Shown here: piece by piece, positions 1,965 to 48,342 of the stretch
Position numbering within the stretch: the stretch's first letter is position 1
Layout of the letters: each line of letters starts with the position of its first letter
Assembly: GCA_051313645.2 (NCBI GenBank)
Contig: JBNRSN020000029.1
Coordinates: 23,312,001 to 23,376,000, forward strand
Length of the DNA stretch: 64,000 nt
Source of the DNA: Centroscyllium fabricii
Lineage: Eukaryota
Direction: 5' to 3'
Notes under the pieces: model-generated
Database searches by the model: none
Seen by the model: the letters and a program-made list of their open reading frames with translations, nothing else
Told to the model about the DNA's origin: nothing
Translations under genes and position numbers: made by a program

Positions 1965-2053
1965 AGCCACGTGGCCTAATGGATATGGCGTATGATTTCG
2001 ATGCTCAACAGGATATTATCAGCAGCTTTCAGGGTCGAGTTCTGGCGCGGTCG
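1965..2053 (+). pseudogene. Intron-containing tRNA-Arg(TCG) pseudogene (intron 2002-2017)
   Basis: GTGGCCTAATGGATA..GATTTCG-A[TGCTCAACAGGATATT]ATCAG..GCGGTCG. Confidence 0.8.
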
Positions 2054-2290
2054 TTTCCCTCACCAGGCAAAACCTTTTCTTTTCTGTTCTGAATCTGCCT
2101 TCAAACCGACCATTTCTGACAGTTCCTCACCTGAAGTAATATAAGGCCTTTTGCTCACAGAAGCTGATTGTAAATTTAGAAAATTGCAGACCTGGGAGAA
2201 AGTGCAGGACATGCGGTGAAGGGCACTTTCTTGCAGAGTATTGCTGTTTGAATGCATGAAATGGAATGGCTGAGTAGAATGTAGATATGA

Positions 2291-2371
2291 GACGAGGTAG
2301 CCGAGAGGTTACGGGGATGGACTTAATCCAATGTGCTCTCCACGCATGTGGTGAAAACCGCATCCTTGTCG
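2291..2371 (+). pseudogene. tRNA-Ser(GCT) pseudogene
   Basis: GACGAGGTAGCCGAGAGGTTA...; 2-nt deletion in the anticodon, T-arm decayed. Confidence 0.8.
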
Positions 2372-2719
2372 TGATTGTGCACAACTTCTGATGCCGATAA
2401 ACCTTTCTCTGTATTTTAGTTAGAATAGGCTTTGTTCATCATCTTGCCAGAGGGGATCCTGATCTGTGTCCCTGCATTCTTTCTAGCTTATAATATTAAA
2501 ATGGACAATTAGAATTGTTCACCCAGTTGTAATTGAATGAAGGTGGAGCAGTGATCAGGAATGGGAGATCGAACTCTCTCTCGCTCTCTTCCTTCTTCCT
2601 TTCTTCCTCGTAGATTGACAGGGAATGATAGACTAGCGGGGAAAAATAAATATTAGTGAACAGAAACATAATATTTGGGAAGAAATTTTACTTCAATCCG
2701 TTTGTCCAATCTTAATGAC

Positions 2720-2960
2720 CAGATAACCTGTTTAGTGTCTTTAGTTGAGTGATAAATAATGGGGAATACATTAGGAAGAATACTCTGGTCTTTTCAAAAT
2801 ATTGCCATGGGATCTAAGGCCTACGATTGACGACTCATCAGAAAATCGACATCGCTGACAGTGCAGCTCTCCCTCAGTACTGCACTGGAGTGTCAGCCTG
2901 GATTATGAACTCTGCAGTGGGGCTTCAGTTTGCTGCCGCTGAAACACGGCTGACACCTAA
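2720..2960 (-). mobile_element. Deu-domain SINE, reverse strand
   Basis: GCCATGGGATCT...CTGACAGTGCAGC.CTCCCTCAGTACTGCACTGGAGTGTCAGCCTGGATTATG; same cassette position as copies near 10420, 35100 and 36680. Confidence 0.7.
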
Positions 2961-3769
2961 ACTCAGTTCATTCGGCTGGAGAGAAATGACGGAGATAAAG
3001 AGAAAGATGGCAGTGGAGTGAAGTTCAACTTGGCGCACAAGAATAAAGCGGGAATCGTTATCGACCGTCTGTTATAAAAAGCGCCCGATTAATGATACCA
3101 TCGATTTCCTAAGCAATCCAAATCATGCAATGTCTATAACGAGCACTGGATCGATAGACGAATAGAATCTAAGAAATGATGCCCTGTATATCCAAATCCA
3201 GGTCATTAATATATATATAATAGAGCAGTGAATGTGGCCTCAGGCAGCGCATTACAGCCCTTCCCTGGGAAACGATATACCGCGGCCCGGCCAAACCTTC
3301 CCATACACCGCGCACAAGGACAGCAAAAACAGGCCCAGCAACATTTGCCGAGGAACCGGAATGAGAAACATTTTATTTTATCTGTGATAGTTGTAAATAT
3401 GTTTGCTGTCTCTCTGTTGTGTAGTTGTAAGTTTGTTGGAAGCGTCATTGATCAACCGGTTATTCACTTGGTTAACTCTTCATGGGCAAAACTTTAAATC
3501 TTTTTTGTGTTTCTCATTTTCGTCGGCTCTCATTGTGTAGACTGTATTTTAGGAGTTGGGTAAAGCTATTCAGTGCTTATGACACCAGGATCTGGTGTAG
3601 CCTTTGGTAAAACAACAGCTCGCTAATACATGAGAGTAACACGTGCTTCACTCTTTGGTGCAAACCCAGCCAATGGGCTTCACTTAAACAACATTGCGCC
3701 CCCCGCACGATTCGACAGCCTGAAATGTGCAAGTAAATGAGCTCGGATAAAACTCAATCTTCAAGCGCA

Positions 3770-3864
3770 GCTCTAGTGGCGCAATCGGTTAGTGCGCGGT
3801 ACTTATATGACAGTGCTCGCTCGGAGAAATGCCGAGGTTGTGAGTTCGAGCCTCACCTAGAGCA
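3770..3864 (+). tRNA. tRNA-Ile-TAT: tRNA-Ile(TAT) with 21-nt intron (3808-3828), apparently intact
   Basis: GCTCTAG/CTAGAGC acceptor stem, TAT at 3804-3806, intron TGACAGTGCTCGCTCGGAGAA, intact B box GAGTTCGAGC. Confidence 0.93.
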
Positions 3865-5289
3865 GTCAGTGCTTTTGCTGTGTGATATTCCGACCGGAGC
3901 TGAAGATACAATTGGTGTTTCCTGCAAAATATCAACTTATTGGCTGTTCCACATGGGCTCTTAGTTTTCTCAGGTCCACCGTGTTGTAATAACGGATGGG
4001 AGTTTTAAAGGAGCCCTTCAGTGTTACTTATTCACATCAGGGAAAGAGGGTCCAGTTTTAACTGTTAAAGGCGTGTTAGATGGGGAGTATTTCTGTTTGT
4101 TCACAAAAAGCAGGATATGGAATGTGTGACCAAGCTTCCCAGCATTTGACTGAATCTTACACAAAATTAGCTTTAAATTCAATGTTGGTCCAAACCACTG
4201 GTCTTGGCCCGTTCTTTGTTCAGATCTGGTTAAAATTAGCACGGCCCACTGAAATTCTTCACCTTCTCGAATGAAGGTGAAACATTGACCGCGAATCGGA
4301 CAAAGAACTGACTTCCTTCTTCCTTCAGCTCGTTCGGCTGGAGTGAAATGGCGGAGTTTAAAAAAGATGAGATCCAAACAGAAACAATGCGCACGAAAGG
4401 CCTCTTCACCGTAAGTCCTGCCCGTTACATCCGGATCCACAAGTTTGAAAATATACAGTCAGCTTCTGTGAAGAAAAGGAATTTAGATATTTTCGTTACA
4501 TGAGGTCAGTGATTGTTGGAAATGGTCAGGTGTAAAACAGGTGCGATCCAGTTTAGAACCCAGTGTACAAACCGACCGCCGCAGACTGGAAACTACAATT
4601 ATCTGATAACATTATAATACACGTCAACGTTAAACATCTTATCCATGCTGTGATGCGGTTATCATTATCTGATTCCTAATTGTTCTTGAAATTCCACTGA
4701 ATTAACTGACTGGCGGAATCACGTTAACTCCAGGTGATCGGCTCGGCTCACCCTTGGGCCGAGTGGCGAGTGGAGCAAACACATTCTGCAACTGATTCCT
4801 TTATATTCTTCAGGGATGGGAAACTGCCCCCTACACTTCCTGTCACACAAGTGGCCCCAGTCCCAGTCCACATTCAGAAAGCTTAATCACCTCTGAGCTG
4901 GACTGGCGATCCATTTTCAAGAAGGAGGCTCATTGTCTGCTCAGCAGAAAAGTCAATCTGCTGGACGTCCAGCTCTGCCAGACTGCATGTTCCTTCAGAC
5001 AGCTTTCCAACTGGACACAAGCATCCAACTGCCGGGCAAGCATTGCTGACTAGTTCAAGTCACCAATATTAGACTCTTCTTAAAAAGTAGTTTTGAAACT
5101 ACGACTTGTATTATCAAATAAGGTATTTCAGAATTAATAGCTCAACATTGTCGTCTGTCTCCGCATCCTCATATAATCCACTCTAGAATAGTCAACTGTA
5201 TTCAAAATGTTGCATTATTTTACTGTGACCGCTAATAATCATTAGAGTGAAGACATTTGCCACGAATACTCATCATTTTCTGTCCTATA

Positions 5290-7830
5290 TGCGTGGCTGG
5301 AGAGATGGTCAATGTGTGGGGGCTTTATTGCTGAGGCATTTGGATCATTTCTGGAGAAGGTGGGTCCTATAAATGGTGAATGGGTTACACTTCAAGTGAA
5401 CCAGAACCAACATTCTGGTGGGAGGGTTAGCTGGTGCAGTTGGTGAGAGTTTAATCCAACTTGGCAGGGGGATGGGCACCAGATTAGAGGAGCAGAAAAG
5501 AGGACTAAGGTGCATAAAAGAGTGAGCGTGTTGGAAAATAATAGAGAAGAATGTAGCCCTGGAGGCGGATGTAGTACAATATTAGAGAGGAGCAAACTGA
5601 GAAAGACTACGAAAAATTAAAAAATGGGTTTACAATGCATGTACATAAATGTGGTAAATAAGGTTGGTCAGTAGACGCACAATTAGCTGTGTGACAATAT
5701 GATGCTGTAGCAAAAACCAAAACGGGCCTTTAAAACGGTAAGGACTTGGCATTTATTGTTAAAGGGTACAAGATGTTCAGAAAAGATATGGGAGGAACAA
5801 TGGTTGGTGGAGTGACAGCGCTGATTAATGAGGACATCGTAGTGTTGGACACGGAGAATGTGCTTGAGGAGTTAAAGACAGAATCCGTTTCGTTAGAGTT
5901 GATGAGAAAAAAGGTTGTGAGCACGGAATTGGGGGTATTCTAAAGGCCCCCAAATAGTGAGAGGGAGATAGAGCTTCAAATCTGCAGCGAAATCGGAGAC
6001 ATATGCCAGAGCTATAGAGTAGTGATATTGGAGGACTTTATTTACCCAAATATCGATCGGGAGAATGCTACATGTAAAGGAACGTAGGAGGAGGAAGTTC
6101 TGAAATGTGTTCAGGAGAAATCCCTTGACCAGTATATTCATTGCCCAAGTAGGAAGGAGGCGTTTCTGAACCTGATACTGCAGAATAAGTTGTGCCAGGT
6201 CGAACAATTGTCCGTCGGAGAACACTTGCAGTGATCATAATATCATAAGATTTAGATTAGCAATGGAGATGAGCAATCAACAATCTATAGTGGACGTCTA
6301 AACTGGAATAAGGCTAACTTCAATAGGAAGTGAAATGATCCAGCCAGGCTAAAATTGTACCAAATGATGAATGGGAAAGCTGTAACGTATCAAATAGTGA
6401 TCTTTAGGGAGGAGATGTTCCAAGTAAAGGCTAGATGCATTCCAAAAAGAGGGAAGGGTAAGGGAACCAAATCAAGAGCTCGTTGGATGACAGGAGAGTT
6501 GGAGAAGATGATGAAACAGAAAAAGAGGGTATATGATGAAGGTCAGGTGAATTCTTCAACGGTAAATCAGACCAAGTACAATAAGTTGAGAGGGGAAGTG
6601 AAGATGAAAGTAAGATTAGTGAAGAAAGAACATGAGAGTAGAATGGCGGTTAACATAAAAGGAAAACCCAAAACAGTAAAGCGGGTAATAAGAGGTGGGA
6701 TGGGGTCCATTACAGACAAGGAAGGTGATAGGATTCTCCGAGGTGCAGGGCAATGCCAGAATACTCAATGAGTGCTTTGTATCGTTGGTTCCTAAAGAGG
6801 TGGAAGCTAACAAAATATCAGTAGAATTGGAAACGGTAGAAGCAACGGAAGAATGTACTATATAGGCTGGTTATGCTTAGAGTGGAGAAGTCGCCTGGTC
6901 CAGATGGCTTGTATTACAGGTTGCTAAGCGAATTGCTTGAGGAGTTGGCGGAAGTGCGTGGCATAATTTTCCAATCTTCCCTAGATGCGGGGGAGGTGCC
7001 AGAGGATTGGACATTGGCAAATTTGACACCATTGTTAAAGAAAACGTCTAGGGACCAGCCAATAATTACAGGCCGGTCAGTTTAAAATCTGTGGTGGGTA
7101 AAGTTTCAGAAACAATAATGAAGTCTAAAATTAATGGGCAATTGGCGATGTTTAAGCTAATTAAGGAGAGCCAACATGGGTTTTTAAAGCAGAGATCGTG
7201 TTTGCGTAATCAAATTTAATTTTTTGATGAAGTAACAGGGAGGATTGATGAAGGGAATGCACTGGATGTTGTCTGAATGGACTTACAGAAGGAGACTGAC
7301 AAAGTAACACATAGAAGGCTAGTTGACAACATTGAAGCTCGTGGAATAGATGGATCAGTGGCAACTTGGAGTGGTGCAGCGCAGATTTACCAGATTAATA
7401 CCGAGGCTTACAGGGTAATCTTTTGAGGAGTAATTGCATAAACTAGGCTTCTGTTCTCTTGAATTTAGTGGATTGATGGGTGAGCTCAGCATGGTGTTTA
7501 AAGTGTTAAAATGTTTAATCGTGTTGATAGAGTTTAACTAGTTCATCTGTCTGGGAATCAAGTACAAGAGGGGAAAACTTGAAACTACAGCCGCTCCATT
7601 CAAAGGCAAATCCGAAAGCATCTTTTCACATAAAGGTTTGCAGCAATCTGAAACTCTCCACACGATAATTCCGTGGGGTCAATTGTTGCTTCCAATACTG
7701 GGACTGACAAGTTGGAGTTAAGCAAGTCAATCAAGTTATGTGGAGCAATGGCAGAAAAATGTAGGGTAGGTGCAGATCAGCCATCATCTAATGTAATGTT
7801 GGAGCAGGTAGAAGTTTGAAAGGACTAATC
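5290..7830 (+). mobile_element. Old degenerate CR1 LINE (ORF1 end, APE, partial RT, 3' end)
   Basis: Fragmented ORFs with KSPGPDG, VPEDW..ANLTPL, SQHGF..NQIEFFDEVT motifs; many stops; internal deletion near 7368. Confidence 0.85.
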
Positions 7831-8039
7831 GCGCTCTAAGGTCGTGAATTCTGTTCTCTTCCTTCTCAGAGATCGTTACCCTACATTAGCTGTCAGCAGA
7901 CTGGATCAATAAATCTTATTTGCACTCCTTCTAATTTGGAAGGTAGATTCACACGAAGCAACTCCACCCTTCATTCTCCTTTTCCAGTGCCGGCACAGCT
8001 AGAAGCAGAGGAAATGGCAGTTGTACCAGGTTCAACCAC

Positions 8040-8560
8040 ACACAGCAGTACCTTAAATCTAGTCCCCCAGACACCCTCCAGTTTAAATCCCTCCAAACCC
8101 AAGAGCAGAACCCAGAAAAGAGTCCCCTGTGTCAGTTGGTATTGAGACAAACTACTCCTACTCATTCAATCCTTGACCAGTCTCATATCAACACTACTTT
8201 CCAAACACCAATTAGAATGAACCAAATCATCAAACAATGCGAAGAAACCTATTTGGAACATTGGGATAAAGCAACCAAAAAACAAAGCAGATTACAATGA
8301 TACCGTGCCCTGAAAAGAGATGATAAATTGGCAGAATATCTCTCAACTGTCAGAAATATAAAGCAGAGACAGACCCTCACTAGGTACAGACTAAGTTACC
8401 ACCAGTTGGCAGTCGAAAAAGGAAGACAGAAGAAATCCTGGCAGCCAAGAGAAAATAGAATATGCGGTCAATGTCTGAGAGATGAGGTTGAAACAGAGGT
8501 GCACTTCCTCCTAAAATGCAAAAGATTCGACAAAACAAGGTTTACCGGTGAAAACACAAG
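8040..8560 (+). mobile_element. 3' fragment of a non-LTR element with C-terminal CCHC finger (RTE-X-like)
   Basis: ORF 8328-8573: LTRYRLSYHQLAVEKGR...PRENRICGQC..EVETEVHFLLKC. Clade assignment from memory. Confidence 0.7.
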
Positions 8561-9051
8561 CTCACTGAGGTAGAAGATTGTCGCATCATAGAACCATAGA
8601 ATGACGCACTTTCCCACAGCCCCGCACATTGTTCGTCATCAAATCATTATCCAATACCCTGCTGAAAGTTACCGCAGTATTGGCCCAACAGCTCAGGCAA
8701 TGCAATCCAGATCATAGCTACCCTCCGAGTAATAAAGCAATCTCATCATCTCACATCTGGTTCTTTTGCCATTTAAATCAATAATTTAAATCTGTGCTCG
8801 ATAAATCTGTGTAGCTAAGGGTAGGAATGGATTTGCTTTCAAAGCAGGTGGTTGAAGTTGAGATCCAGGTCAGACATGATCTCACTGAATGGCGGAAAAG
8901 GCTCGATGGGCTGAATGGCCCACTCCTGTTCCTATTTCCTGTCAATCGGCGGAGCTTCTGCTGTAAATGTAGGAAGGTGCCTGGATATATGAAATATAAC
9001 TATGACAATTTCTTTCCCAATGGTTGCAATTCTCGGATGAGTTATCACCTC

Positions 9052-9134
9052 CACCAGAGTAGTGGTCTAACCTGCACGAATTGACATAGACTCGAACTTT
9101 ATCTTGAATCGTTAAACCACTCGGCCATGTTGGT
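9052..9134 (-). pseudogene. Highly decayed tRNA-Leu(TAA)-like pseudogene
   Basis: Reverse complement starts ACCAACATGGCCGAGTGGTT and ends CTCTGGT; 83 nt, long variable arm. Confidence 0.55.
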
Positions 9135-9279
9135 GATATTAATAGCGACGCGCAGTTGTACACAATTCAACAAATTCCTTTCACATCAAAATACCAACCC
9201 ATTGATAATGCCATTGATTTGAGAGCTGCTGTGGAAGAATTTAACATCAGTTACTTTCCAGTTTCCTGCTCCTCACCGT

Positions 9280-10280
9280 CTGCTTTTCATTATGGGCTTC
9301 CATTCCCTCTACACCTCCAGCAGGGCGGCTGAAGTGCTCTCCGCTTCTTCCTTGAATGGAGGCCAACACAGTCCCTATTCACTAACACCCTCCTCCGCCT
9401 GGCTGAACTTGTTTTGAACATACATTGAACTATTTCTCATTTGAATCCACTCACATGAACCAACTAAGGCCACTTGCTTCCACCGCTAACTTGACGACAC
9501 TTCCTCCCACCTTGATTCCTGTAACTATATTCCTTTATCTCGGTTTCTCCGTCTCCATCACATCTCTTCTGATGACGGCACATTCCGATGTGTTTCATTT
9601 TTGCCTCAGCCGAGGAACTGCCTCCACAATGGTGGGCAGGACCCTAGACATTGGCCGTTCTATTTCCCTCACTCAGGTTCTCACCCATTCCCCTCCCTAT
9701 CAGCAGCACGATAGGGTTCCCCTTGTCCTCAGCTTTCACCCCACCAGCCACCACATTCAACGGATTATCCTCTGCCATTTCCAGCACCTCCAGCGTGATC
9801 CCACCACCAAACACATCTTCCCCTCCCGTCCCCTTTCAGCATTCGTAAGAGACCGCTTCCTCTGTGACACTCTGTGACACTCATCTATCACCCGACCATC
9901 CCTTCCCCTTCCCACGGCACCTGCCTGTGCCAAAGCAGGAGATGCAACACCGGCCATTTTACCCCCTCCTTTCCTAAAGTCCAGGGTCCCAACACACTTT
10001 CCAGGTGAAACTTCGAATTGCTTCTTCTTCTTGCAATTTCGTAATCTGTAATAGCTGCCGATTACTCTTCATTGGGGAGACCACACACAGATTGGGTGAT
10101 CGTTTTGCCAAACACCTCACTTCAGTCCACAAGCTTCCGGTCGCTGGTCATCTTAATTCTCCTCCCCACTCTCATTCTGACCTCTCAGTCGTAGGCCGCC
10201 CACACTGTTCTAATGAAGTTCAATCGGAGCTCGAACAACAGCACCTCATCTTTCGAATAGGCACTTGTTAGCCTGCCCTC
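9280..10280 (+). mobile_element. Penelope-like element fragment (RT C-terminus plus GIY-YIG endonuclease)
   Basis: RVPLVLSFHPTSHHIQRII..HFQHLQRDPTTKHIFPS; C..LFIGETTHRLGDRFAKHL..VAGHLNSPPHS..EQQHLIFRIGT. Confidence 0.85.
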
Positions 10281-10842
10281 GACCTTTTCCTCGTCCTTTG
10301 CTAAATGGCTTTATCTGAATTCACCTGCTCAAGAACATTACTGCGTGTTTCCTACAGAACTCAATAAGCTCCAGCGAGGCAGAGGATTGAGCCTCCTAGA
10401 GTGAGTCGGTTGACCGCCACACCAGAAAGACGGCACCGCTGACATTTCAGTTCTCCCTCAGCACTGCAATAAATGGAGTGTCAGCCAGGATTATGTGCTC
10501 AGGTCTCTGGAGTGTGACTTGCGGTTGCTCCCGCTGAGCTACGTCTGACACCTAAACTCAGTTCAATCGGCTGGAATGAAATGACGGAAATAAAGTGAAT
10601 ATGATAATGGAGCAAAACTTCAAATTGGCCCATTAGATTAAATCGCGCGTCGTAATCTGCCGCCCATGAGAGAAACCGCCGATTTATATTTCCATCGATT
10701 TCATAATCAATGATAATCAGGCTGTTTATAATGGCGGGGTCGAGGTCAGTCAAGGTTCACTATGTGTCTGTTTAAACCGGGTGTGCTCACAGTCCCGCAG
10801 CATTCAGTGTGTCAGTATACTTTTTAAAGAAAAGCGATCCCA

Positions 10843-11035
10843 GATATAATGGCTGAGTTGGTGAGTTTTAACTAAATATGGCGGGGATCGTTCGGAATTG
10901 GAACCCGGGACCTCTCGCATTTTAAGTAGCGCAATTCCCACAGCGAGAATCATTCCGCTTGACCAACGAGCCGCCGAGGACCTGACCGAAATTGCATTAG
11001 GTTGCCCTGCGCTGTTGTGAACCCAGTTCGCAGAG
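10843..11035 (+). pseudogene. Split tRNA-Ser(TGA-type) remnant enclosing an antisense Pro gene
   Basis: 5' half GATATAATGGCTGAGTTGGTGAG (10843-10865); 3' half GAAATTGCATTAGGTTGCCCTGCGC..GAACCCAGTTCGCAG (10988-11035); flanks match the uninterrupted remnants at 1783 and 28498. Confidence 0.6.
10884..10972 (-). pseudogene. Intron-containing tRNA-Pro(TGG), degenerate (intron 10920-10936)
   Basis: Reverse complement GGCTCGTTGGTCAAGCGGAATGATTCTCGCTGTGGG[AATTGCGCTACTTAAAA]TGCGAGAGGTCCCGGGTTCCAATTCCGAACGATCCC. Confidence 0.88.
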
Positions 11036-11152
11036 GACCTGTTCATTGATTTTAAATTTGTTTATCTTTCCTGAAATTCACTTATTTATATGAGCAGTTT
11101 CCCTGAATCTGCTCGCAATTCTCCGCATAAGAACAACGTCGGCGTTAGCAGC

Positions 11153-11223
11153 GGCCGCGTGTCCTAATGGATAATGCGTCCGACTTCGGTGTAAATCGTT
11201 CAGTTATCAGAAGAGTGCAGGTT
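11153..11223 (+). pseudogene. Intron-containing tRNA-Arg(TCG), 3'-deleted (intron 11190-11205)
   Basis: GGCCGCGTGTCCTAATGGATAA..GACTTCGG[TGTAAATCGTTCAGTT]ATCAGAAGAGTGCAGGTT; 3' T-arm and acceptor strand missing. Confidence 0.85.
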
Positions 11224-11464
11224 GTTTAAATATATGGGATAATCTTTTTTTCCCTATTCTGAACCTGGCTTCAAACCGAGCATTTCTTACAATCCCCCAC
11301 CTGAAAATAACGGAAGGCCTTACATGAAGCTGATTGAACATTTTAAACATTGAAGGTCTGAGTGCACGGACAGGACAACTGGTGAAGGGGACCTTCGTTC
11401 AGATTTGTTTCTGCCTAGATGCAAATGACAGGAAATGGAATGATTGAGTACAGTGCATCCGACA

Positions 11465-11546
11465 GACGATGTCGCCGAGACGTTAAAGCTATGAAATGCT
11501 AATCCATTGTGCTCTCCACGCTTGGGTTCGAATATCATCCTCGTCG
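11465..11546 (+). pseudogene. tRNA-Ser(GCT) pseudogene
   Basis: Full length with GCT anticodon and GGTTCGAAT; D-arm and stems mutated. Confidence 0.85.
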
Positions 11547-11871: not shown

Positions 11872-11927
11872 GGTCGCACAGCCCAATGGATAAGGCGCCT
11901 GACTTCGGTATGAATCGTTCAGTTATC
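11872..11927 (+). pseudogene. 5' exon plus intron of tRNA-Arg(TCG)
   Basis: AATGGATAAGGCGCCTGACTTCGG[TATGAATCGTTCAGTT]ATC; part of a local duplication of about 11040-11210. Confidence 0.8.
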
Positions 11928-12049
11928 TACAGAATGTCCACTTGCAGAGACAGGGCGCAAAAAACATCAGGCATTAACTCAAAATCCTAATTATAGGGAC
12001 AGTTAATGTTCTGGGGTGCGAAATTCGGTCACAGCTGCAAACAAATATG

Positions 12050-20164: not shown

Positions 20165-20257
20165 GGCTCTGTGGCGCAATGGGTAGCGCATTGGACTAGT
20201 ATAACTGATCGGCTTAAAATTATTCAAAGGTATTGGTTCGAGTCTTAGCCGGGATCG
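20165..20257 (+). pseudogene. Intron-containing tRNA-Arg(TCT)-body pseudogene with altered anticodon
   Basis: GGCTCTGTGGCGCAATGGGTAGCGCATTGGACT-AGTA..[~20 nt]..ATTCAAAGG..GGTTCGAGTC. Confidence 0.82.
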
Positions 20258-27865: not shown

Positions 27866-28497
27866 AAACTCGCTTTATGTATTTTGTCCTCTGAGGCACC
27901 TGCTGATAGATTGCAACAAATAATCAATCATTACTACATGAACCAATTATTATTTGTTGGCGGTGAAAACCTATTTACTCCTTCAAAACCCCGCGCTCTC
28001 ACATGCCTGAACTTGATGCTCCATAATTCAACCACATCTCTTCTCCCAGCTTTTTGTTCCATCAACAATCAATATCCCTCCTTTTCTTTCCTCTTTCCAT
28101 TTCATTACCACTTTCCTGAGGTATTAAATACATCTATCATTCAATTTCACCTGCTTAACTTCACCATACTTAGGTTTGCTCTGCGACCATCGTTGTTCCT
28201 GGGGGCACATCTCCCATTCGCACCAATCTCAATTGGCGCTTTGAAACCAGTTGATACATTCAGACCAGCGGGACCGCTCGACAGACAAGCATTGCGAAAG
28301 CAGAGCCGGCCTTCGGAAGCAAAATAGTTGGATTGCACACGGAATTCCCTTGGCCTAATGGATACGGCGGCTATATCGCTGCTAATCGTAATCGTGATTG
28401 TTGTCAGTCACGGTTCATTCTGCGTCTATTTAAAGCGGGTGAGTTCACAGTACTGGACCATTATGTGTGTTGGTCTTTTTGAAGGAGCGCGATTTCA

Positions 28498-29276: not shown

Positions 29277-29744
29277 TTATTTGGAACTTGATCCAGGTGC
29301 GTATTTTTCTTGCGAAAAGGGGCTACAATCGGCCGCTACGATTGTAATTAATAATATTTATTAACCACAGTCTGAAAATCCAGTCTGTGAAATGAGAACA
29401 CATGAACGTTCATCACAGGCAAAGCAGAAAAACTGATGAACGTTTCCTTGTTACTCGTTTGCCATGTATTTTGCTCAGTGTGAAACCTTCATTTATAGAA
29501 GTTGAAGATCTCCAGTGGTCTGCTAATATTTTAACAATATATGAATAGTGCAGGGAAACAGCGCCGAATCACCGCTGTGCCCATACACTCTTCATGTCTT
29601 GTTAAAATATTTGCAGACCACTGGCAATCTTCAACTTGTATGAATTGAAGGTGGAGCAGCAATCGCGAATCGCAGGCACCCAACGAAAGACTAGCGGGGA
29701 CAAAGCCAAATGATTAGGAGGCAGAAACCTAAGGTAGCAAGCTA

Positions 29745-35417: not shown

Positions 35418-35679
35418 ATTTGCCCACTAGATTAAACCGCGCATCGTAATCTGCCTCCCGTTATAGAAACCGCCGATTTATATTTCTATCGATTTCATCA
35501 GCAATGATAATCAGGCCTGTCTATAATGCCGGGGTCGTGGTCAGTCAATATTCACGATGTGTCTGGTTAAACCGGGTGTGCTCACACACCCGGATCATTC
35601 AATGTGTCAGTATATTTTTGATAGAAAAACCATCACAGACGTGATGGCCGTGTTGGTGAGGTTTTACTGAAATATGGCG

Positions 35680-35768
35680 GGGCTCGACCGCGATTTGAAC
35701 CCAGGACCTCTCGCATTTTACGTAGCGTGGCGCCAGAAACGAGAGTCAGTCCCCGAGACCAAATAACC
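35680..35768 (-). pseudogene. Intron-containing tRNA-Pro pseudogene nested in Ser remnant (35638-35831)
   Basis: 3' exon TGCGAGAGGTCCTGGGTTCAAATCGCGGTCGAGCCC preceded by a ~17-nt insert at 35716-35732 ending ..GCTACGTAAAA. Confidence 0.8.
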
Positions 35769-35948: not shown

Positions 35949-36034
35949 GGCCGCGTGGCCTCATGGAAAAGGCGCCTGACGGCGTAAATCGTTCAGTTAT
36001 CAGAAGATTGCAGGTTGGAGTCCTGCCGCGGTCG
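35949..36034 (+). pseudogene. Intron-containing tRNA-Arg(TCG), 3-nt anticodon-loop deletion (intron 35983-35998)
   Basis: GGCCGCGTGGCCTCATGG..CTGAC---GG[CGTAAATCGTTCAGTT]ATCAGAAGATTGCAGGTTGGAGTCCTGCCGCGGTCG. Confidence 0.88.
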
Positions 36035-38400: not shown

Positions 38401-38803
38401 CATAGAAACATAGAAGATAGGAGCAGGAGTAGGCCATTCGGCCCTTCGAGCCTGCTCCGCCATTCAATGAGATCATGGCTGATCATCCAATTCCAGTACC
38501 CTGTCCCTGCCCTCTCCCCATATCCCTCGATCCCTATCGAGCCTGCACCAACACATATCCCACTCTATCCCCGTAACCCCACATATTCAATCCCCCTAAC
38601 ACTAAGGGTCAATTTATCCTGGCCAATCAACCTAACCCGCACATCTTTGGACTGTGGGAGGAAACCGGAGCACCCGGAGGAAACCCACGCAGACACGGGG
38701 AGAATGTGCCCACTCCACACAGATAGTACCCGAGGTTGGATTTGAACCCGGGTCTCCAGTGCTGTGAGGCAACAGTGCTAACCACTGTGCCACCATGCCG
38801 CCC
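38401..38803 (-). mobile_element. Full-length V-SINE (HE1-like): tRNA head, V domain, CR1-derived tail
   Basis: Head GGGCGGCATGGTGGCACAGTGGTTAGCACTG; V core TTCTCCCCGTGTCTGCGTGGGTTTCCTCCGGGTGCTCCGGTTTCCTCCCACAGTCCAAAGA; tail nearly identical to CR1 3'UTR 19645-19725. Confidence 0.92.
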
Positions 38804-39206
38804 CGTTTCGAATTGGACCACTGACTTAAATGTTGTACTAATATCTCCGTATAAACTTGTACAGTAATGTTAATAAAACCAAATTTTAGGAAAGTTCAAA
38901 GCCTTGGTTGATCTTAGCTCTGATTACCCTAAAGAGTGAAGAGAGTTAAAAGAAAAACCGTACCGTTCCTGCTGTCCAAGCTCACATTCTCCTCGCGAGC
39001 ATGCTACACCTAGCTCATGGCATGGTTCAAATTTCTAATAGATAGTCGGAATGGGAAACCTTATCGAACTGTGTGGGAGAGCAGCGGAGTGCTGCGCGGA
39101 CATTTAACTCACTGGGCGAAACTTTTTCTTCCTTGTTCTGAATCTGGCTTCAGCCCAACCATTAAAACCGATGGCAGTACTAATCTATTGTGTTCCGCGA
39201 TATAAG

Positions 39207-40187
39207 TCTGTGAAGTTAGGCAACCTCACCTCCCCCCCTTACCCTGAACACGGGGGCCCCACAAGGTTGTGTGCTGAACGCCCTCCTCTACTCCCTCTTC
39301 ACTCACGACTGTGCGGCTGTCCATGGCTCCAACACGATCATCAAGTTCGCGGATGACACCACGGTGGTTGGCCAGATCACCAACAACGACGAGTCAGCCT
39401 ACAGGGATGAGATCCAGCGCCTTGTGGGTTGGTGTGCCGACAACAAACTGGCACTGAACACCAAGAAAACCAAGGAGATCATAGTGGACTTCCGGAGGAC
39501 TGGAAGCAGAAGACACACCCCCATCTTCATCCAAGGGGCTGAGGTGGAAAGGGTGTCCAGCTTCAAGTTCCTCGGGGTCCACATCTCGGAAGATCTCTCC
39601 TGGTCACTAAACACCTCCTCTCTGGTTAAGAAGGCCCAACAGCGCCTGTACTTCCTAAGGAAGCTGAAGAAAGCCAGGCTGTCATCCGGCATCCTCTCCA
39701 ACTTCTACCGCTGCACAATAGAAAGCATACTGACAAGCTGCATCACTGTCTGGTATGGAAATTGCACTACCTCGGACCGAAAAACCCTGCAGCGGGTAGT
39801 CAAAACTGCCCAACGAATTACCGGTACACAGCTACCGTCAATGGAAAGCATCTACCTCAAACGCTGCTTACGGAGGTCTATGAACATTATTAAAGACCGC
39901 ACACACCCCAGCCACAGTCTGTTCACCCCCTGCCCTCCGGGAGATGTTACAGAGCAATTTGCACACGCACGACTATATTTCAGAACAGCTTCTTCCCCAG
40001 GGCTGTCAGACTCCTGAACTCTAAAAAGAAACTCCGGTACCTGCACGCCTGATAATGTACTTTACTGTATGCAATTTGCATGTAATTTATTTGCACTACT
40101 CTCGGGAGAGTCGAGACTTCGTCTCGTTGTATTGTACTAGTACTCTGCAATGACAATAAAACTTGAATTGAATTGAATTGAATTGAA
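39207..40187 (+). mobile_element. 5'-truncated Rex1/Babar-clade LINE
   Basis: ORF 39271-40017: LLYSLFTHDC..IIKFADDTTVVG.ITNNDESAYR..KTKEIIVDFRR..KKAQQRLYFLRKL; AATAAA then (TTGAA)5 tail. Confidence 0.9.
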
Positions 40188-40451
40188 GTTGTACTCTAAC
40201 TATTTCTAGCCAACAATGTTAGCCTCCATTTACAATCATGTATTTCCACTTACAAATTGTTTTTTCAGAAAAAATTGCTCTGGTGCTACACTGTCGTCTG
40301 TCTCGACATCCTGATATTATAAACTCTGTCATAAATATACTGCTCTCAAATTGCTGTGAGAGCGAACTGAAAGGGAAATGTGAAGATATTCGAAATAAAT
40401 GAACACGATGGCGATACAATTCATTGTTTGTGAAGCTATTGATACCTGGAT

Positions 40452-41968
40452 ACATAGACAGGAGCAGGAGTGGTCCATTCGGCCCCTCGAGCCTGCTCCG
40501 CCATTCAATGAGATCATGGCTGATCATCCAAGTTCAGTACCCTTTTCCTGCCTTCTCCCCATAGCCCTTGATTCATTTAGCCTTAAAAATATATATTAAC
40601 CCCCTTGTTCACTATATTTAATGAATAGGCCTCTATGGCCTTCTGTGGTAGCGAATTCCTCAGGTTCACCACTCGCTGGGTGAGGAAGTTGCTCCTCATC
40701 TCTGTTCTAAGTGGCTTACCCCTTATCCTTAGACTGTGACCCCGGTCTGTGCTGCCCTGCCATCGGGAACATCCTTCCTGCATCTAGTCTGTCGAGTCCT
40801 GTTAGAGTTTTATAAATTTCAGTGAGATCCCCTCTCATTCATCTAAGCGAGTATAAGCACAATCGGCCCAATCTCTCCTCATACGTTATTCCTGCCATAC
40901 CAGGTATCAGCCTGGTGAATCTTCGTTGCACTCCCTCCATGGCAAAAAGATCCTTCCTCAGATAAGGTGACCAAAACTGCACACAATACTCAAGTGGTGG
41001 TCTCACCAAGGCCCTGTACAACTGCAGCAAGATATCCTTGTTCCTGTACTCTAACCATCTCGCTAGGAAGGCCAAATAAACATTTGCCTTATTAACCGCC
41101 TATTGCACCTGCATGCTTACCTTCAGTGACTGGTGCACAAGGACACACAGGTCCCGTTGCATTTCCCAGATTCTCCCAATACATTTCAGCTCAGATAATA
41201 ATTTGCCTTGCTGTTTTTGCTACCAAAGTGGATAACATCGCATTTATCCACATTATATTGCATCTGCCATGTTTCTGCCCAATCGCCCAACCTGCCCAAA
41301 TCAAACTGGAGTTTCTCGGCATCCTCCTTACAGCACATACTGCTTTGCGTCATCTGCAAACTTGGAGATATTACATCTAGTTCCCTCGTCTAGATCGTAT
41401 ATATTGTGAATAGTTGGGGTCCAATGATCGATCCCTGCGGTACCCCACAAGTCACTGCCTGTCACTCGGAAAGGGAGCCATTTATTCCAACTCTTTGCTT
41501 TCTGTCTGCCATCCAGTTCTCTATCCAAGTCAATACTTGCGCCCAGTCCCATGTGCCTTAACTTTGCATGCTAAGCTCTTATGTGAGACCTTATCAAACG
41601 CCTTTTGAAAGGCTAAATACACCACATCCACTGGATCTCCCTTTTCTATTTCATCAGTTACATTCTCAAGAAATTCCAGTAGATTAATCATGCTCGACTT
41701 ACCCTTTGTGAATCCATGTTTACTTTGTCCGATCCGTTTACTGTTTACCAAGTGCTCTGCCATTACATCTTTTATAATGGACTCTAGCATTTGCCCCACT
41801 ACCGATGTGAGGCTTACCGGTCTGTAACTCCCCTCTTTCTCTCCACCACCTTTTCTGAATAGTGGGGTAACATTAGCTACCCTCCAATCCATGGGTACTG
41901 TTCCAGAGTCTATTTAATTTTGGAAGATGATCAGGAATGCATCTATTATTTCTAGGGCCACTTCCTGA
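40452..41968 (-). mobile_element. 5'-truncated CR1 (RT), reverse strand
   Basis: [21 protein letters not shown]; KFADD; RPPLEYCVQFWSPYLRKD; 3'UTR near 40452. Confidence 0.92.
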
Positions 41969-42730
41969 AGAAACCTAGATTGGGGACGGGTTAAAGTGTT
42001 GTATAAACACATGATCAGTGTTTTGTTTTGCTAGGTTTGTTTTCGCTTTTTTAATGTAAGCAAGTGCTGTAGCACCAAGGTAAGATACAGATTGAGTTGA
42101 GTTAATCAGCCATGCCATAATTGAATGGCGGACAGGCTCCGTGGCCTGAATGGCGTCCACCTGTTCCTGTGTTCCTATGTATGGTTCAAACACCTTAAAT
42201 AAACCTCTCTGTTTTCTCCACAGATGATGAATGAGCCGCCGTGTGGTGCCTGTATTATTATTGCTGTTTTAATTTGGGTTTTGGGGATGAGCCGATGGAA
42301 GTGGAAACCTACCGTGTTTGGTTTTCTGGCAGGAGCAAATGAAGTTGGCCTATAAATCACCTCCAGACAAATTCACCAAAATATTCCCCACCTCACTACC
42401 GCACAACCGCAAGCACTGCTCCACTCTACCATATAAACCCAATTAGTTCCCCCTCAATTCAACAATCTTCACAAGCGTCCCCACTATTATACAACCTCAG
42501 GTGTGCATGTACAGAGTGTGAGCCTTTTACAGTGGGTTTTATACAACAGCGACCGCCAGTCCTCATGTGTCACACTAAGTAAATCTAGATAGCATAAATA
42601 TAAGATCCTCAATAATAAATCCAGTAGGTAATTCAGGAAAAACTTGTTTTTGCAAAGAGTGGCTGGAATGTGAAAATACGACAAGCACCAGGCATCATTG
42701 AGGGGAGAAGAGCAATTTTAGCCGTGATTT

Positions 42731-42806
42731 GCCTCCGTGCCTTAACTGGTCAAAGCGCCTGTCTAATAAATAGCATATAGCTTGGGTTTAAATCCCAGCG
42801 CTATTT
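42731..42806 (+). pseudogene. tRNA-Thr(AGT) pseudogene
   Basis: GCCTCCGTGCCTTAACTGGTCAAAGCGCCTGTCTAATAAA..AATCCCAGCG; downstream flank resembles 27540. Confidence 0.8.
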
Positions 42807-43929
42807 CTTTAAATAACAAAATATTGTCTTATGATCCCACAGAGGTGGGTTGCTTCTCTTTTGAAAGTGCTGTAATCCTTTGGGATGGGAACGGATAAAG
42901 GCTCAACACACGTACATCATAAATATATATTAAAGTCTGATTGGCATTCGGCCAACGTTATAACATTTCCTCCAGTGATCAACATAAATTTATCGGTTTA
43001 TTAATGGCGATTAAAAAAATTAGTCATCCTGATACTGCCTTTAATTATATTTTCGTGTCATTGATTTAATAAACTGCACAACTGTTTTATAAAAATCAGA
43101 CCGTAAATAACCCCGTGCTCTGGTTGCACAGAATTCCAACTCCTGATCCACCAGGGGACGCTCCACCCAGCAGCTGTGAGAGCTGCAAATATACTGGTGG
43201 CACCCCCGCCAGTTACAAATATATTCCTGACTTATGTTCGATGTACATCTTGTTTATCTTTGCAAGTTACAAGTGTCTGTAGATATATCTGAATTAATTA
43301 TTCATTTATTTGATTTCATCTGTCTTAATTGTAAATTGAGGCAGTGCATTCCAGACCCCAACAACTCGCAGCGCAAAACAATGGTTCCTAATGTCGTCTC
43401 GGGTTCTTCTGCCAATTACCTTTAATTTGTGTCCTCTGGCCACCGACTGTTTGACCACTGGAAACATGTTTCTCCTCATTTACGATATCAAATCCGTTCA
43501 TGAATTTAAACACCTCTATCAAAATTTCTGTTCTAAAGCGAACAACCCCAGCTTCTCCAGTCCCCCACATTCATAAGTCCCTCTTCCCTGGTACCATTCC
43601 AGTAAATCACTTCTGTTAATTTCTTTCTTAAATTAATAACTATAGTGAAACACTTATAAGAAAAAGAACGAACAGAACAAAAAAGAGAGTAATAAATACA
43701 GAGCAAAATGGACGTGAATGTTTAAGGACATAAGAAATAGGAGCAGGAGTAGGCCATTCGGCCCTTCGAGCCTGCTCCGCCATTCAATGAGATCATGGCT
43801 GATCTGAGAAATTGAAATAACAGAAGATCTGAGTTTTATGATCGGTCAGTGAGAGGATTCCATCTTTCAATCGGACTTTGGCTGTTCGATTTACTGATAA
43901 AGACAGACAGAGAGAAGCACGGTGCGCAG

Positions 43930-44002
43930 GCCCGGCTAGCTCAGTCGGTTGCGCATGAGACTCTTAATCTCAGGTTCGTGGGTTCGGGACCCACGTTGGG
44001 CG
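43930..44002 (+). tRNA. tRNA-Lys-CTT: tRNA-Lys(CTT), full length but mutated in D-arm and T-loop (probably impaired)
   Basis: GCCCGGCTAGCTCAGTCGGT..GAGACTCTTAATCTC..CCCACGTTGGGCG; about 5 substitutions including A58. Confidence 0.85.
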
Positions 44003-44430
44003 GTTCCCTTTACTGTTGATTTTACAGGCGATCGCCAGCAATTCCGTGGCAGAGAGACCAAGTAGTGTTTTTTGTAAATGCAATACAACAACAATATCAG
44101 AAAATCTCTCCATGATTCTGGACTCTTATCGCTCTCTCGTTGAACTTCATATCATTTCACCTGCAGTGCGGCTCAGTGGGACTTCGGGTCAGTCTCTCCC
44201 TTCACAACCCATCAGTGCCGGGAAAACAAAGGGGAATTTAAAACACATGTTGTGCTCTGTAACTTCTTATAAAAACTTCAGTTTACTTCACTCAGTGTCC
44301 AGCCCTGTGAGGTCTCCCCTGGTGGGTCAGCTTTAGATGTTTATAAACACGTCAGCAGAACATTAACATAACCTGAGCTCCGCGATCTGGTCGGGTCCCA
44401 TTCCCCCGAAGTGATTAATGAGCAGGAGGG

Positions 44431-44768
44431 ATACTATCTGTGTGGAGTTTGCACATTCTCCCCGTGTCTGCGTGGGTTTCCTCCGGGTGCTCCGGTTTCC
44501 TCCCACAGTCCAAAGATGTGCGGGTTAGGTTGATTGGCCATGATAAATTGACCCTTAGTGTTAGGGGTATTGAATATGTGGGGTTGCGGGGATAGGGTGT
44601 GATATGTGATGGTGCAGGCTCGATAGGGATCGAGGGATATGGGGACAAGGCAGGGATAGGGTACTGGGTTTGGATGATCAGCCATGATCTCATTGAATGG
44701 CGGAGCAGGCTCGAAGGGCCGAATGGCCGACTCCTGCTCCTAGTTTCTATGTTTCTATGTTTCTATGA
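44431..44768 (+). mobile_element. 5'-truncated HE1-like V-SINE
   Basis: V domain plus CR1 tail, ends (TTTCTATG)3. Confidence 0.9.
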
Positions 44769-44814
44769 TTCGAGTTTCTTTAAAAGAATGACACGAAAAT
44801 CACTTTGATGTGCG

Positions 44815-44842
44815 GCCGAAATAGCTCCGTTGGGATTCGGCG
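44815..44842 (+). pseudogene. Internally deleted tRNA-Phe(GAA) remnant
   Basis: GCCGAAATAGCTCCGTTGGGA (first 21 nt of Phe, one mismatch) joined directly to TTCGGC (3' acceptor strand), then a T-run. Confidence 0.6.
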
Positions 44843-45322
44843 GTTTTTAGATATTTTGTGACTCTTTTTTGGATCCTTTTCTCGAACTTACCAATTTAAA
44901 ATGAAGTCTTTTATCCGCCACTGAAGGGTTGGGTTTGAATAGAGAGAGACATCAAGGATGGGAACTATTTCTATTGTCTGTATTTAGCTTTTATTTCTCT
45001 GCCTCCATCTGTCCTTTTCTCTGCTTTATTCTCTCCCGGTGCCGGGTGTGCATTTGCCAAAATTGATGCCTTTTTCACATCTCGGGGCGGTCAGACACGC
45101 TCTGTCTGTCTGTTACTGCTTGTGACCATTAAAGGGAAAAGGCCGCCAGTTAAACGTTTATCAGCAAACCGAAGGAAGACAAATAAACTGAAAGGTGTGT
45201 TACTCCGCCCAAATGCAAATGTGAAATCGATGTTGCTCAAAACAATTTTCCCCTGACAGTTTATGCAGATTTTTTGTAAAGTCTGGATTTTCAATGGCAG
45301 AAGAAACCGAGCAAGTAAGAAA

Positions 45323-45685
45323 TACAGAAACACAGACGATCGGAGCAGGAGTCGGCCATTCGGCCAATCGAGCCTGCTCCCCCATTTTTGATGAGATCAT
45401 GGCTGATCATCCAAACCCAGCACCCACCTCCTACCCATATCCGCCGATACCGCGACTCTAAGAACTATATCTCACACACATACTTATGGTCAATATTTTT
45501 TTGTGTTATCTCCAATTCACCTAACCTGCATTTCTTTGGGTTGTGGGAGGAAACCGGAGGAAACCCACACAAACACGGGGAGAACATGCAAACTCCACGC
45601 AGAGAGGTCCTGGGCCAAGCACAATTGGAACCCAAGAGCTGCCGATGGCGAGGCAGCAGTGCTAACCACTGCGCACCGTGTCGTC
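45323..45685 (-). mobile_element. Older HE1-like V-SINE
   Basis: Tail, V domain and head GCAGTGGTTAGCACTGCTGCCTC on reverse strand. Confidence 0.8.
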
Positions 45686-45720
45686 CGAGTAAAGCAGTTG
45701 ATTCGAATAATGAAAGAACG

Positions 45721-45797
45721 CGCTGCGAGCAGTGCTCGAACCTGCGCAGAGAAACCCAATTATCAAGTGCAACGTCTTGACCAATCGGCCATCGCAA
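45721..45797 (-). pseudogene. tRNA-Ser(TGA) pseudogene
   Basis: Reverse complement GCGATGGCCGATTGGTCAAGACGTTGCACTTGA..GCGCAGGTTCGAGCACTGCTCGCAGCG. Confidence 0.82.
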
Positions 45798-45809
45798 ATA
45801 AACTGCTGA

Positions 45810-45885
45810 TGACCCGAACAGGAATTAAACCTGTTCCCTGAGCGATATTAGCAGCGCGCTCTAAAAAAACCTGTGCTAACCGGCC
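45810..45885 (-). pseudogene. tRNA-Ile(AAT) pseudogene, 12 nt upstream of the Ser gene
   Basis: Reverse complement GGCCGGTTAGCACAG..TTAGAGCG..TGCTAATA..CGGGTCA. Confidence 0.8.
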
Positions 45886-46206
45886 GGTAATAGCTGTCAG
45901 GGTTGTTAGAGCCCCGCGCTGGGCGGTTTGTGTTTTACTTCTCACACTGGGTCACAGAGTTATTGTAGAGACAGTGATCACACCACAACCCTTAAACATT
46001 GCTCCGATGTAAAATAATCACTCTTATTAAACCGAGTGTGTACATCGAAAGTAACAGAAAAGAGCACTTAATTGTGAAAAGAATGATTGCACCAACAGTG
46101 AAGGGAATCTGCCGGCCTCCGCAATTCTCATCCTGTGACTGTGGGAGTTTGGTTCGGGCAGAGGTTTGACTGTGACGACACGAGCCCTCGCCGCACCCCC
46201 GCTACA

Positions 46207-46540
46207 CAGAAACATAGAAGATAGGAGCAGGAGTCGGCCATTCGGCCCCTCGAGCCTGTCCCGCCAGTTAATGAGACGATGGCTGATCAGTCAATCTCAA
46301 TACACTGTCCCTGCCTTCTCCCCATGTCCCTTGAACCCTTTAACCTTAAGACATTTCTCGAAATCCTTCTTTAATATATTTAAACAATTGGCCTCAACTG
46401 CCTTCTGTGGTAGAGAATTCCAGAGGTTCACCACTCTCTGGGTGAAAAAAATCCTCCGCATCTCGGTCGCAAATGTCGTACCCCTTACCGTTAGACTGTG
46501 ACCCCTGGTTCTGGACTCCCTCGCGAGCGGGAACATCCAT
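46207..46540 (-). mobile_element. CR1 3'-end fragment
   Basis: MFPLARESRTRGHSL..FFTQRVVNLWNSLPQKAVEA plus 3'UTR. Confidence 0.88.
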
Positions 46541-47956
46541 CCATGTTAAACCTGAAAAGTGTCTGGCAAAGATTCAGAACTGGCGAGGAGGAAGTAACAC
46601 TTCGGGGAGGTTTGTTTTCCTGAATCCCGAACAATTCTGGCTCTTTTTGACATGTCCCCATTCAATGTACAGACCCTCTCCTCATTGTGCCCCTCGAGAA
46701 CTGTCACCTCATATTTATCGCCAGTTAATTTCAAGACATGTTTTACACACCGGTCCACGATTGACCTGGAGTCCCAAATACTGTGTCAAATGTAGCACTT
46801 TCTGAAATACTACTCGGGCCGCGTGTTAGTCAAGAGAGACAGAGGGTAATTAGGCAGACTAAGCATTGCAGAGCCTTTGCTGCAGTGAAACAGGGGCTCG
46901 TTCCATGAAACAGTGATACAGCTTTCCGAATAGAGAACTGATGGTTCCACTGAAACCAAAGGGTTTGAGTTGTTAGCAGGCAGGACAGATAGAATGTGCG
47001 GCGTGTTTAAACTAGATGTGGGTTTTGTTGCTGTAGTTGTTCTGTGGCGTATCTTCAAGGAGATGATTCTGAATGCAATGAATCAACGTGTAACCATGCA
47101 ATGCAAAGGTAATGAGCGTCATTACAGTCCAGCCTGGTTCAATGCAACAGGCAAACTATTCATCCAGATGACAGAAAGGGTATTTAAGACCATGGCACTA
47201 AATGACACAGAATTCAGCCAGCTTCAAGAACAGAAGGCAAACCAAGAGTGTAAAAACTGCAACTGAATGGGGAAGTAAATATTGAGATTGAATATAGCAA
47301 GTGAAGAGAAGGGAAATATCTGTGCCAGAGGTAAGTTGTGACATTATTCACATTCCGACTTTATCTGCATAGGTCTGTTGAAGGGGCGATTGAGAAGAAT
47401 AGAGGAGAAATGAAAAGGAAGGAGGAATGAGGGAAAGGTCTTCTGATTGCCCGGAGCGCAGGACGCTGTGTTCGGAACCGGCAGACTTTAAAGCGCATGT
47501 GTAGGAAAGTAAAGAGTGAACCTGTGTGTGAAACGATCACAAGAAAGTTGTGCTCGGAGTTGTGCCCTTAAGACAAGTTAAAAGTTGTCAGGAAAACTGC
47601 TGTTGTGAAAGCACAAAATTAAAAACAGAAACTGCTGACAACACTCAGCAGGACAGGCAGCATCTGTGGGGAGATACCCACTTCATCAGGTCTTCATTGT
47701 GCACTTTGAACGATACCTCACACAGCTCACATCTCACAATCTCATCACCTCCGAGAAGAGAGGGTTCACAATCTCCGCTCCGCCTTCATTCAAGAATTGC
47801 AGTGATCTGTTTTAATTTCAACAAGTTGCGATCATTGCAGGGGCAAAGACCAGAACCCGAGACAGGTTCTGACAAAATTACCTTTCTAAGCCTTTTTACG
47901 TAAGATTCAGTGAAATGCTCGGAAAATGTACAAGCATCAAACGTGCAAAGGCATCA

Positions 47957-48020
47957 CGACTCGAACCCACGCGCACATACGATTAGCAGTCCATCGCCTT
48001 AACCTCTCGGCCACCTCGTC
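47957..48020 (-). pseudogene. tRNA-Ser(GCT) with intact 5' half and deleted 3' parts
   Basis: Reverse complement GACGAGGTGGCCGAGAGGTTAAGGCGATGGACTGCTAATC then deletions. Confidence 0.85.
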
Positions 48021-48252
48021 GCACCGATGGAGAGCTCTCAGCCATTGCATTGGCTGCTTTTAGCATCTAAGTAGAAATATCCTGTAAGGAATGTACTTCA
48101 CCGTTTATCCTGCCGATGCACACAGTTCTACAATGTTGAAAATGTACAAGCAGCTTATTATAAGCAAAAGGCCTTCCGATGCTGCAGGTGCGGAACTGTC
48201 AGAAATGGTCGGGTTGAGGGAAGACATAGAACAAGTGTCTGAGCTACTTAAG

Positions 48253-48342
48253 CGACCGCGGCCCGGCTTGAACCTGCAATTTTCTGATAATTGAAGAATA
48301 CGCAACCGACGTCAGACGCTTTATCCTTCAGGTCACGCGGTC
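48253..48342 (-). pseudogene. Intron-containing tRNA-Arg(TCG), full length, mutated (intron 48289-48305)
   Basis: Reverse complement GACCGCGTGACCTGAAGGATAAAGCGTCTGACGTCGG[TTGCGTATTCTTCAATT]ATCAGAAAATTGCAGGTTCAAG..CCGCGGTCG. Confidence 0.87.

Follow-up and report, generated by a model that had tools for sequence, protein, structure and literature searches.

Whether a vertebrate can carry spliced introns in its tRNA-Arg(TCG) genes is a question raised by a 64,000-nucleotide (nt) stretch of the Centroscyllium fabricii genome (assembly GCA_051313645.2, contig JBNRSN020000029.1, positions 23,312,001 to 23,376,000, forward strand; hereafter the window), in which five tRNA-Arg(TCG) copies are interrupted by a short insert just 3' of position 37. 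The sequence-only reading of this stretch had proposed a non-standard Arg(TCG) family interrupted at the canonical intron position, and this holds: intact intron-bearing Arg-TCG genes exist, 16 copies with perfect exons and an intron having been found elsewhere in the genome. The window copies are dead members of this multi-copy family, the intact members of which reside in tandem tRNA arrays at other sites. Judged from sequence, it is probable (roughly 0.8) that the Arg(TCG) array genes are ordinary RNA polymerase III (Pol III) tRNA genes, from the precursors of which TSEN and RTCB would remove the insert, leaving a standard tRNA-Arg(UCG).

Dead copies in the window and intact copies elsewhere

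The five loci are real and lie at 1965-2053, 11153-11223, 11872-11936 and 35949-36034 on the plus strand and at 48342-48253 on the minus strand. A profile built from 41 near-intact genomic Arg(TCG) copies recovered them in the window with expectation values (E) of 7e-22 to 6e-11, against a best E of 0.066 in five shuffles of the window; ARAGORN made no call on any of the five at its default score and Rfam gave no match at E<1. Their inserts (2002-2017, 11190-11205, 11909-11924, 35983-35998 and 48305-48289, respectively) measure 16, 16, 16, 16 and 17 nt and all lie between position 37 and A38, the position in the 35949 copy being taken from the alignment because its anticodon is hit by a 3-nt deletion. 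As had been claimed, all end in (G/A)TT, with GTT in the 11153, 11872 and 35949 copies and ATT at 1965 and 48253. The third-last insert base, here called -3, is G with C32 in three copies, A with T32 at 1965 and A with C32, a mismatch, at 48253. Each copy is damaged, again as described: the 1965 copy, of intron family C, has 12 exon substitutions and a broken T-stem; of the three family-A copies, that at 11153 has lost its gene 3' end (about 20 nt of T-arm and acceptor) and is followed by the family-A trailer, that at 11872 loses its 3' exon after a few bases and that at 35949 carries the 3-nt deletion through the anticodon; the 48253 copy has 11 exon substitutions. All five copies counted per tandem unit are thus present, but three further, strongly decayed ones had been overlooked, namely an Arg(TCG) remnant with insert at 4573-4660 (minus strand, E 1e-6) and Arg(TCG)-like remnants at 28344-28430 (plus, E 2e-4) and, more weakly, at 1627-1700 (plus, E 2e-3).

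Across the genome, a pattern for the Arg(TCG) anticodon arm gave 96 matches with a gap of 8-30 nt and four with a gap of 0-4 nt (three insert-free, one with a 2-nt remnant), and the reversed control pattern gave none; the pattern overlooked L172, a second isodecoder that is intact and lacks the intron but has undergone a compensatory change in a stem. The fetched loci yielded 113 distinct Arg(TCG) copies, kept at nine or fewer differences per exon, for which the intronless gene L033 served as reference. Exons are perfect in 17 of the 113, 16 with an intron (ten on contig C922, five on contig C811 and one dispersed) and one without, L033 itself; 47 have at most one exon difference, and 45 of these carry an intron. 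Comparison of the 113 copies with L033 places the insert exactly between N37 and N38, as does comparison of tRNA-Pro copies (below) with L245. The 16 perfect-exon copies retain an intact mature tRNA body, with cloverleaf and internal promoter boxes, and downstream T-runs; the window copies do not. ARAGORN calls Arg(tcg) with an intron; it labelled damaged copies Leu, Phe, Pro or Lys, a warning that annotators misname such genes.

At least four Arg(TCG) intron types can be distinguished: family A (16-17 nt) on contig C811, family B (16 nt, 86 matches at two or fewer mismatches) on C922, family C, which is the lineage of the 1965 copy and was seen only as pseudogenes with a broken T-stem, and another type, 17 nt long, that occurs on C480 and C945. 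The anticodon TCG sits on an Arg(TCG) body, and AGG, CGG and TGG sit on Pro bodies (below); none of these belongs to the Tyr-GUA, Ile-UAU, Leu-CAA and Arg-UCU families. A standard Arg(TCT) gene with a shifted anticodon, entailing no new intron family, would suit the fact that both are arginine tRNAs of the same clusters, but the exons match those of intronless L033 exactly and differ from the Arg(TCT) body, the introns of Arg(TCT), which are 20 nt long, are dissimilar to those of 16-17 nt, and Pro introns would be left unexplained; the exon comparison refutes such an origin, which can practically be dismissed.

The Ser, His, Gly, Ile-AAT and Val neighbours in the same cassettes of the fetched loci are insert-free. 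An intron-bearing Arg-CCG was rejected, as the ARAGORN call at L175 and the like copy at L177 are anticodon mutants of a family-B copy fused to a short interspersed element (SINE); the sole genuine Arg-CCG gene encountered (L229) lacks an intron, as do the Arg-ACG genes encountered (L231), no genome-wide count having been made. In L231, moreover, Arg-ACG, Met and Ala together with a Sec-like tRNA body make up a repeat unit present in tandem copies (1280-1362 and 2567-2649, both minus strand), and in L032 an intronless Arg(TCG) gene is interrupted in the T-loop region by a repeat insertion (1475-1545 and about 1795-1825). Of the ARAGORN calls of 'Pyl (cta)' (L065 1629-1710; L066 1278-1372, minus strand), one is an Arg-TCT body in the wrong register; the intronless calls of this kind lie at the places that Ser-CGA genes occupy in sister cassettes, and each may represent a Ser body that has acquired CTA as its anticodon.

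Pairing and conservation around the insert

Introns at the same site occur in tRNA-Pro. Genome-wide, 158 Pro matches (100 listed) have an insert and 11 are insert-free; the intron matches span the anticodons AGG, CGG and TGG and form clusters on C480 and C3. Of the 92 distinct Pro copies fetched, 80 have introns, which are of several unrelated types of 16-20 nt, and 78 of the 80 combine U32 with A(-3); over all Pro loci noted (L192-L221, L232-L241, L253-L277 and those in the window), intron length spans 16-21 nt. Eight Pro-AGG copies have perfect exons together with an intron, while of 25 Pro-TGG intron matches 24 have A(-3) and three have perfect exons. The Pro-CGG introns on C3 (L195-L215) share their first five bases with Arg-TCT introns (L066 8040-8134, minus strand), which may reflect chance or a shared origin. 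The tandem unit in the window also contains three damaged intron-bearing tRNA-Pro copies that the sequence-only reading had overlooked: a Pro(TGG) at 10883-10972 (minus; 17-nt insert at 37/38, T32 with A(-3)), a Pro copy at 35679-35768 (minus; 17-nt insert) and a Pro(TGG) with a perfect 5' exon and a damaged 3' exon at 48522-48612 (plus; 19-nt insert at 48558-48576).

Sections of PMC10275265 describe an anticodon-intron (A-I) pair, and those of PMC6614914 report that leaving this base pair unpaired blocks splicing in fly and human cells. G is the third-last intron base in 91 of the 96 Arg matches, C32:G(-3) is found in 84 of 97 Arg copies with introns of at least 15 nt, and position 32 can pair with the -3 base in 44 of 45 near-intact Arg copies. 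The -3 base tracks position 32 between isotypes, being G in Arg (C32) and A in Pro (U32), and by sequence complementarity the pyrimidine-32/purine(-3) pair leaves a 3-nt bulge geometry. This covariation between isotypes is stronger evidence than the T32:A combination at 1965, which had earlier been offered as covariation. The 1965 copy belongs to a single amplified pseudogene lineage in which T32 is fixed among 11 aligned copies with A(-3) in seven and G(-3) in four, and CpG decay can explain the change; the combination was therefore rejected as evidence. A count of CpG decay (0/35 at the family-B intron CpG, versus 13/280 in exons) was likewise discounted, the numbers being too few and search-biased. 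Predicted folds retain the acceptor, D and T arms; those of L008 and L068 keep the cloverleaf with anticodon-intron pairing, and the A-I pair forms in L008. The bulge-helix-loop fold of the anticodon-intron arm is likewise predicted for L008, but only in part for family B.

The consensus sequences of families A and B are identical at 73 of 73 exon positions and at nine of 16 intron positions, and their 200-nt flanks align no better than shuffles (scores of 16 versus 16.7 and 21 versus 18.1). Exons that remain identical while introns and flanks have diverged are the signature of a spliced tRNA kept under selection for a long time. Within clusters, the rate of difference per site is 0.02-0.06 in exons and 0.14-0.22 across the 25 upstream nt, in an ungapped comparison of copies sampled through exon motifs, which flatters the exons. 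These figures bear on whether the inserts are instead neutral, never-spliced insertions in tRNA-derived repeats that were spread by tandem duplication and came to their position by chance. The arrays are repeat-rich, many copies are SINE-fused and family C, an amplified lineage, consists of nothing but pseudogenes, as such an account would expect; however, the sequences largely refute it, in that exons are identical between unrelated flanks, two isotypes independently share the exact 37/38 position and the matching -3 base, and SINE fusions are confined to dispersed copies, with 0/87 in clusters. We regard neutral insertion as very improbable and favor introns under selection in spliced precursors.

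Probable transcription and splicing, and the fate of the arrays

Copies scattered outside the arrays provide a view of transcription. Twenty-two Arg copies (L033 included) lie outside the two clusters and were compared with 87 cluster copies, four short-remnant copies falling in neither set. In 20 of the 22, the 5' flank shared with cluster genes is 10 nt or less, and 18 share a 3' trailer of 18-25 nt that ends at the T-run, whereas among cluster copies flank homology spans the whole 200/300 nt compared. A SINE head follows within 120 nt in 14 of the 22 dispersed copies versus none of the cluster copies, and is found on 16 of 25 Pro-TGG copies. Target-site duplications were sought around the 22 dispersed copies, where the longest repeats measured 6-10 nt and none was convincing. 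The dispersed leader-gene-intron-trailer copies are read as retroposed Pol III primary transcripts, and that they reach only from the leader, through gene and intron, to the T-run at the end of the trailer suggests that the parent genes are transcribed.

These loci include a large natural set of pre-tRNA/SINE chimeras (L008, L023, L035-L038, L130, L133, L138, L182-L190, L255-L277), some of which were later amplified within larger repeats (L175-L178 on C744 and C1200; L179-L181 and L100 on C811 at 51-55 Mb; L173-L174 on C25). L010 (1479-1690) has a pre-tRNA-Arg fragment, a pre-tRNA-Arg and a tRNA-Val in a row, as a multi-RNA chimera, L009 (1501-1679) has a tRNA-Asp immediately upstream of a pre-tRNA-Arg copy, and L040, L041, L043 and L046 (about 1500-1560) consist only of anticodon arm, intron and partial T-stem, with a SINE head on three.

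A single copy speaks to splicing. L031 is intronless at the exact 37/38 junction and carries the family-A trailer (20/20 nt) and a SINE head, the trailer of L033 being unrelated; it is most simply explained as a retrocopy of a spliced family-A precursor. End-trimming usually precedes splicing in vertebrates, so copies of spliced precursors that retain a trailer would be rare. Four other candidates (L034, L113, L115 and L119) were rejected as splicing products, their 1-2 nt remnants being microhomology deletions. Recurrent deletions of this kind (L034, L113:1494, L075:4535, L119) constitute a DNA-level route to imprecise Arg intron loss.

From exon conservation, the A-I pair and the one precisely intronless retrocopy, we infer that the precursors are spliced. 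Pol III would transcribe the intact array genes, as the retroposed copies suggest; TSEN would cut both ends of the insert and RTCB would join the exons, yielding the same tRNA-Arg(UCG) as L033. The arrays would evolve by birth and death, tandem duplication expanding them while many copies decay, including all of those in the window, and a handful of intronless genes, each single-copy and identical or related to them in mature sequence, would persist at other loci.

The family-B cassette also extends beyond this genome. Public runs queried with the family-B gene and its flanks (21 listed) included two of an organism, here designated B, with 7/9 and 6/9 sampled words, a fish gut metagenome with 7/9 and an organism C with 3/9 only and no match to the flank; runs with 2/9 words, among them the sole RNA run, were discounted as evidence. 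Contigs of organism B match the family-B 3' flank, mostly at 90-99% and with fixed differences, and judged from that flank it appears to be a close relative sharing the cassette.

Several observations weigh against splicing in the arrays. Damaged copies are the majority (only 47 of 113 lie within one difference), and concerted evolution makes the copies non-independent. Splicing is not forced by need, since for Arg(TCG) there are two or more intact genes that lack an intron (L033, L172) and for Pro there are nine perfect intronless copies; searches starting from L031 and L172 (40 candidates scored out of 563 and out of 213) revealed no others of the Arg(TCG) kind among the loci examined. The minimum-energy fold of 17-nt family-A introns prefers an alternative anticodon arm without the A-I pair, and in the predicted family-B fold the anticodon pairs with the intron but C32 is left open. 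L031 is a single case that could also have arisen if the reverse transcriptase had switched template to the mature tRNA of an intronless gene; an intron-family trailer was found on 0/11 intronless Pro matches, chimeras that stop at the 3' splice site were sought and none was found, and at least four copies show imprecise intron deletions by microhomology, with 1-2 nt left.

It is worth considering that the arrays are vestigial, having once been spliced and selected and now decaying or silent, with intronless genes supplying tRNA-Arg(UCG) and tRNA-Pro. The uniformly dead window copies, exon changes in most fetched copies, the existence of intact intronless genes and the fetched perfect or near-perfect Pro-TGG intron copies, which look dispersed rather than clustered, would all fit. 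Set against this are the 15 perfect-exon genes left in two separate clusters, each with a downstream T-run, and the close relative that shares the family-B cassette flank, mostly at 90-99%. We judge decay of the whole system unlikely and retain the reading of array genes that are still transcribed and spliced.

The window itself lies in such an array. About 1.3 copies of a 48,917-base tandem unit (1-48917, no strand assigned) fill it, the unit being 99% identical to the next; seven near-identical copies were found on contig C811 of the 7.2-Gb genome, and the unit is a mosaic of tRNA-gene cassettes in decay. The second unit repeats the 1965 locus at 50882-50970, the 11153 locus at 60069-60139 and the 11872 locus at 60787-60851 (all plus strand). 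Standard introns are present in a tRNA-Ile(TAT) at 3770-3864 (plus), which serves as an internal comparison, and in a damaged tRNA-Arg(TCT) at 20165-20251 (plus). An Rfam match to MIR821 at 29485-29652 is weak, far below the gathering score, and probably marks a hairpin repeat.

Known tRNA introns and tRNA-derived repeats

In metazoan tRNAs, introns are essentially absent beyond Tyr-GUA, Ile-UAU, Leu-CAA and Arg-UCU according to the accessible sections of a 2025 paper (PMC12530127), those of PMC12168002 agree for animals, and those of PMC4090602 describe intron gain in eukaryotic tRNA genes as unexplained. Literature searches returned no report of intron-bearing Arg-UCG or Pro tRNA families in a vertebrate, and the available parts of PMC10485636, PMC4033280, PMC13578239, PMC13343379, PMC4702915 and bioRxiv 10.64898/2026.09.24.752997 contain nothing on Arg-UCG or Pro introns. 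Elephant shark is among the genomes scanned in PMC8450103, the available text of which has nothing on its introns. Database entries for cartilaginous fish may already contain such genes, unremarked. What appears to be new here is that a vertebrate has introns of the canonical TSEN type in its Arg-UCG and Pro tRNA genes. In this one vertebrate genome, most gene copies for four further anticodons have introns, alongside intronless twins with identical mature sequence. This makes it possible to date intron gain by comparing related genomes, and to test for intron-dependent modification or for tissue-specific expression with the mature sequence held constant.

In Xenopus, oocyte-type tandem tRNA repeats are made of amplified cassettes with several tRNA genes each, next to a small number of dispersed genes. 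The likeness of the present arrays, known here from their sequence alone, to these repeats serves only as a lead. Tentatively, and with distinctly less confidence than in splicing itself, independent gains of canonical TSEN introns may have occurred in this vertebrate lineage in two or more further isotypes (Arg-UCG, and Pro with all three of its anticodons), the arrays being a germ-line or oocyte-type set beside a few intronless housekeeping genes of identical mature sequence. If true, this would offer a natural experiment for studying how tRNA introns arise and what they do.

The dispersed copies differ from a tRNA-derived SINE family, in which tRNA head, constant body and tail of a long interspersed element occur in all copies, in that the fusion here is restricted to dispersed copies. 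They resemble the template-switch chimeras of U6 with L2 and with the Mon-1 SINE, which, as described in part of PMC4476161, likewise join a Pol III primary transcript up to its U-run to the 5' end of a retroelement; unlike in those chimeras, the partner here is a pre-tRNA that retains intron, leader and trailer, and no target-site duplications were found. Among the anticodons of all eukaryotes pooled, the axis labels of Fig. S7 in PMC12168002 place UCG, AGG, CGG and UGG as the next most intron-rich; the figure combines fungi, plants and animals and displays no vertebrate family. As in the metazoan Tyr-GUA, Ile-UAU, Leu-CAA and Arg-UCU families, to the extent covered by the available sections of PMC12530127, PMC12168002 and PMC10275265, the present genes have a single short intron at 37/38 and a pyrimidine at position 32 that would pair with the third-last intron base. 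Intron-bearing and intronless genes are mixed in human Arg-UCU and Leu-CAA, as they are in Arg(TCG) and Pro here. Unlike in these standard families, it is Arg-UCG and Pro-AGG, -CGG and -UGG that carry the introns, in the large majority of copies and in tandem arrays.

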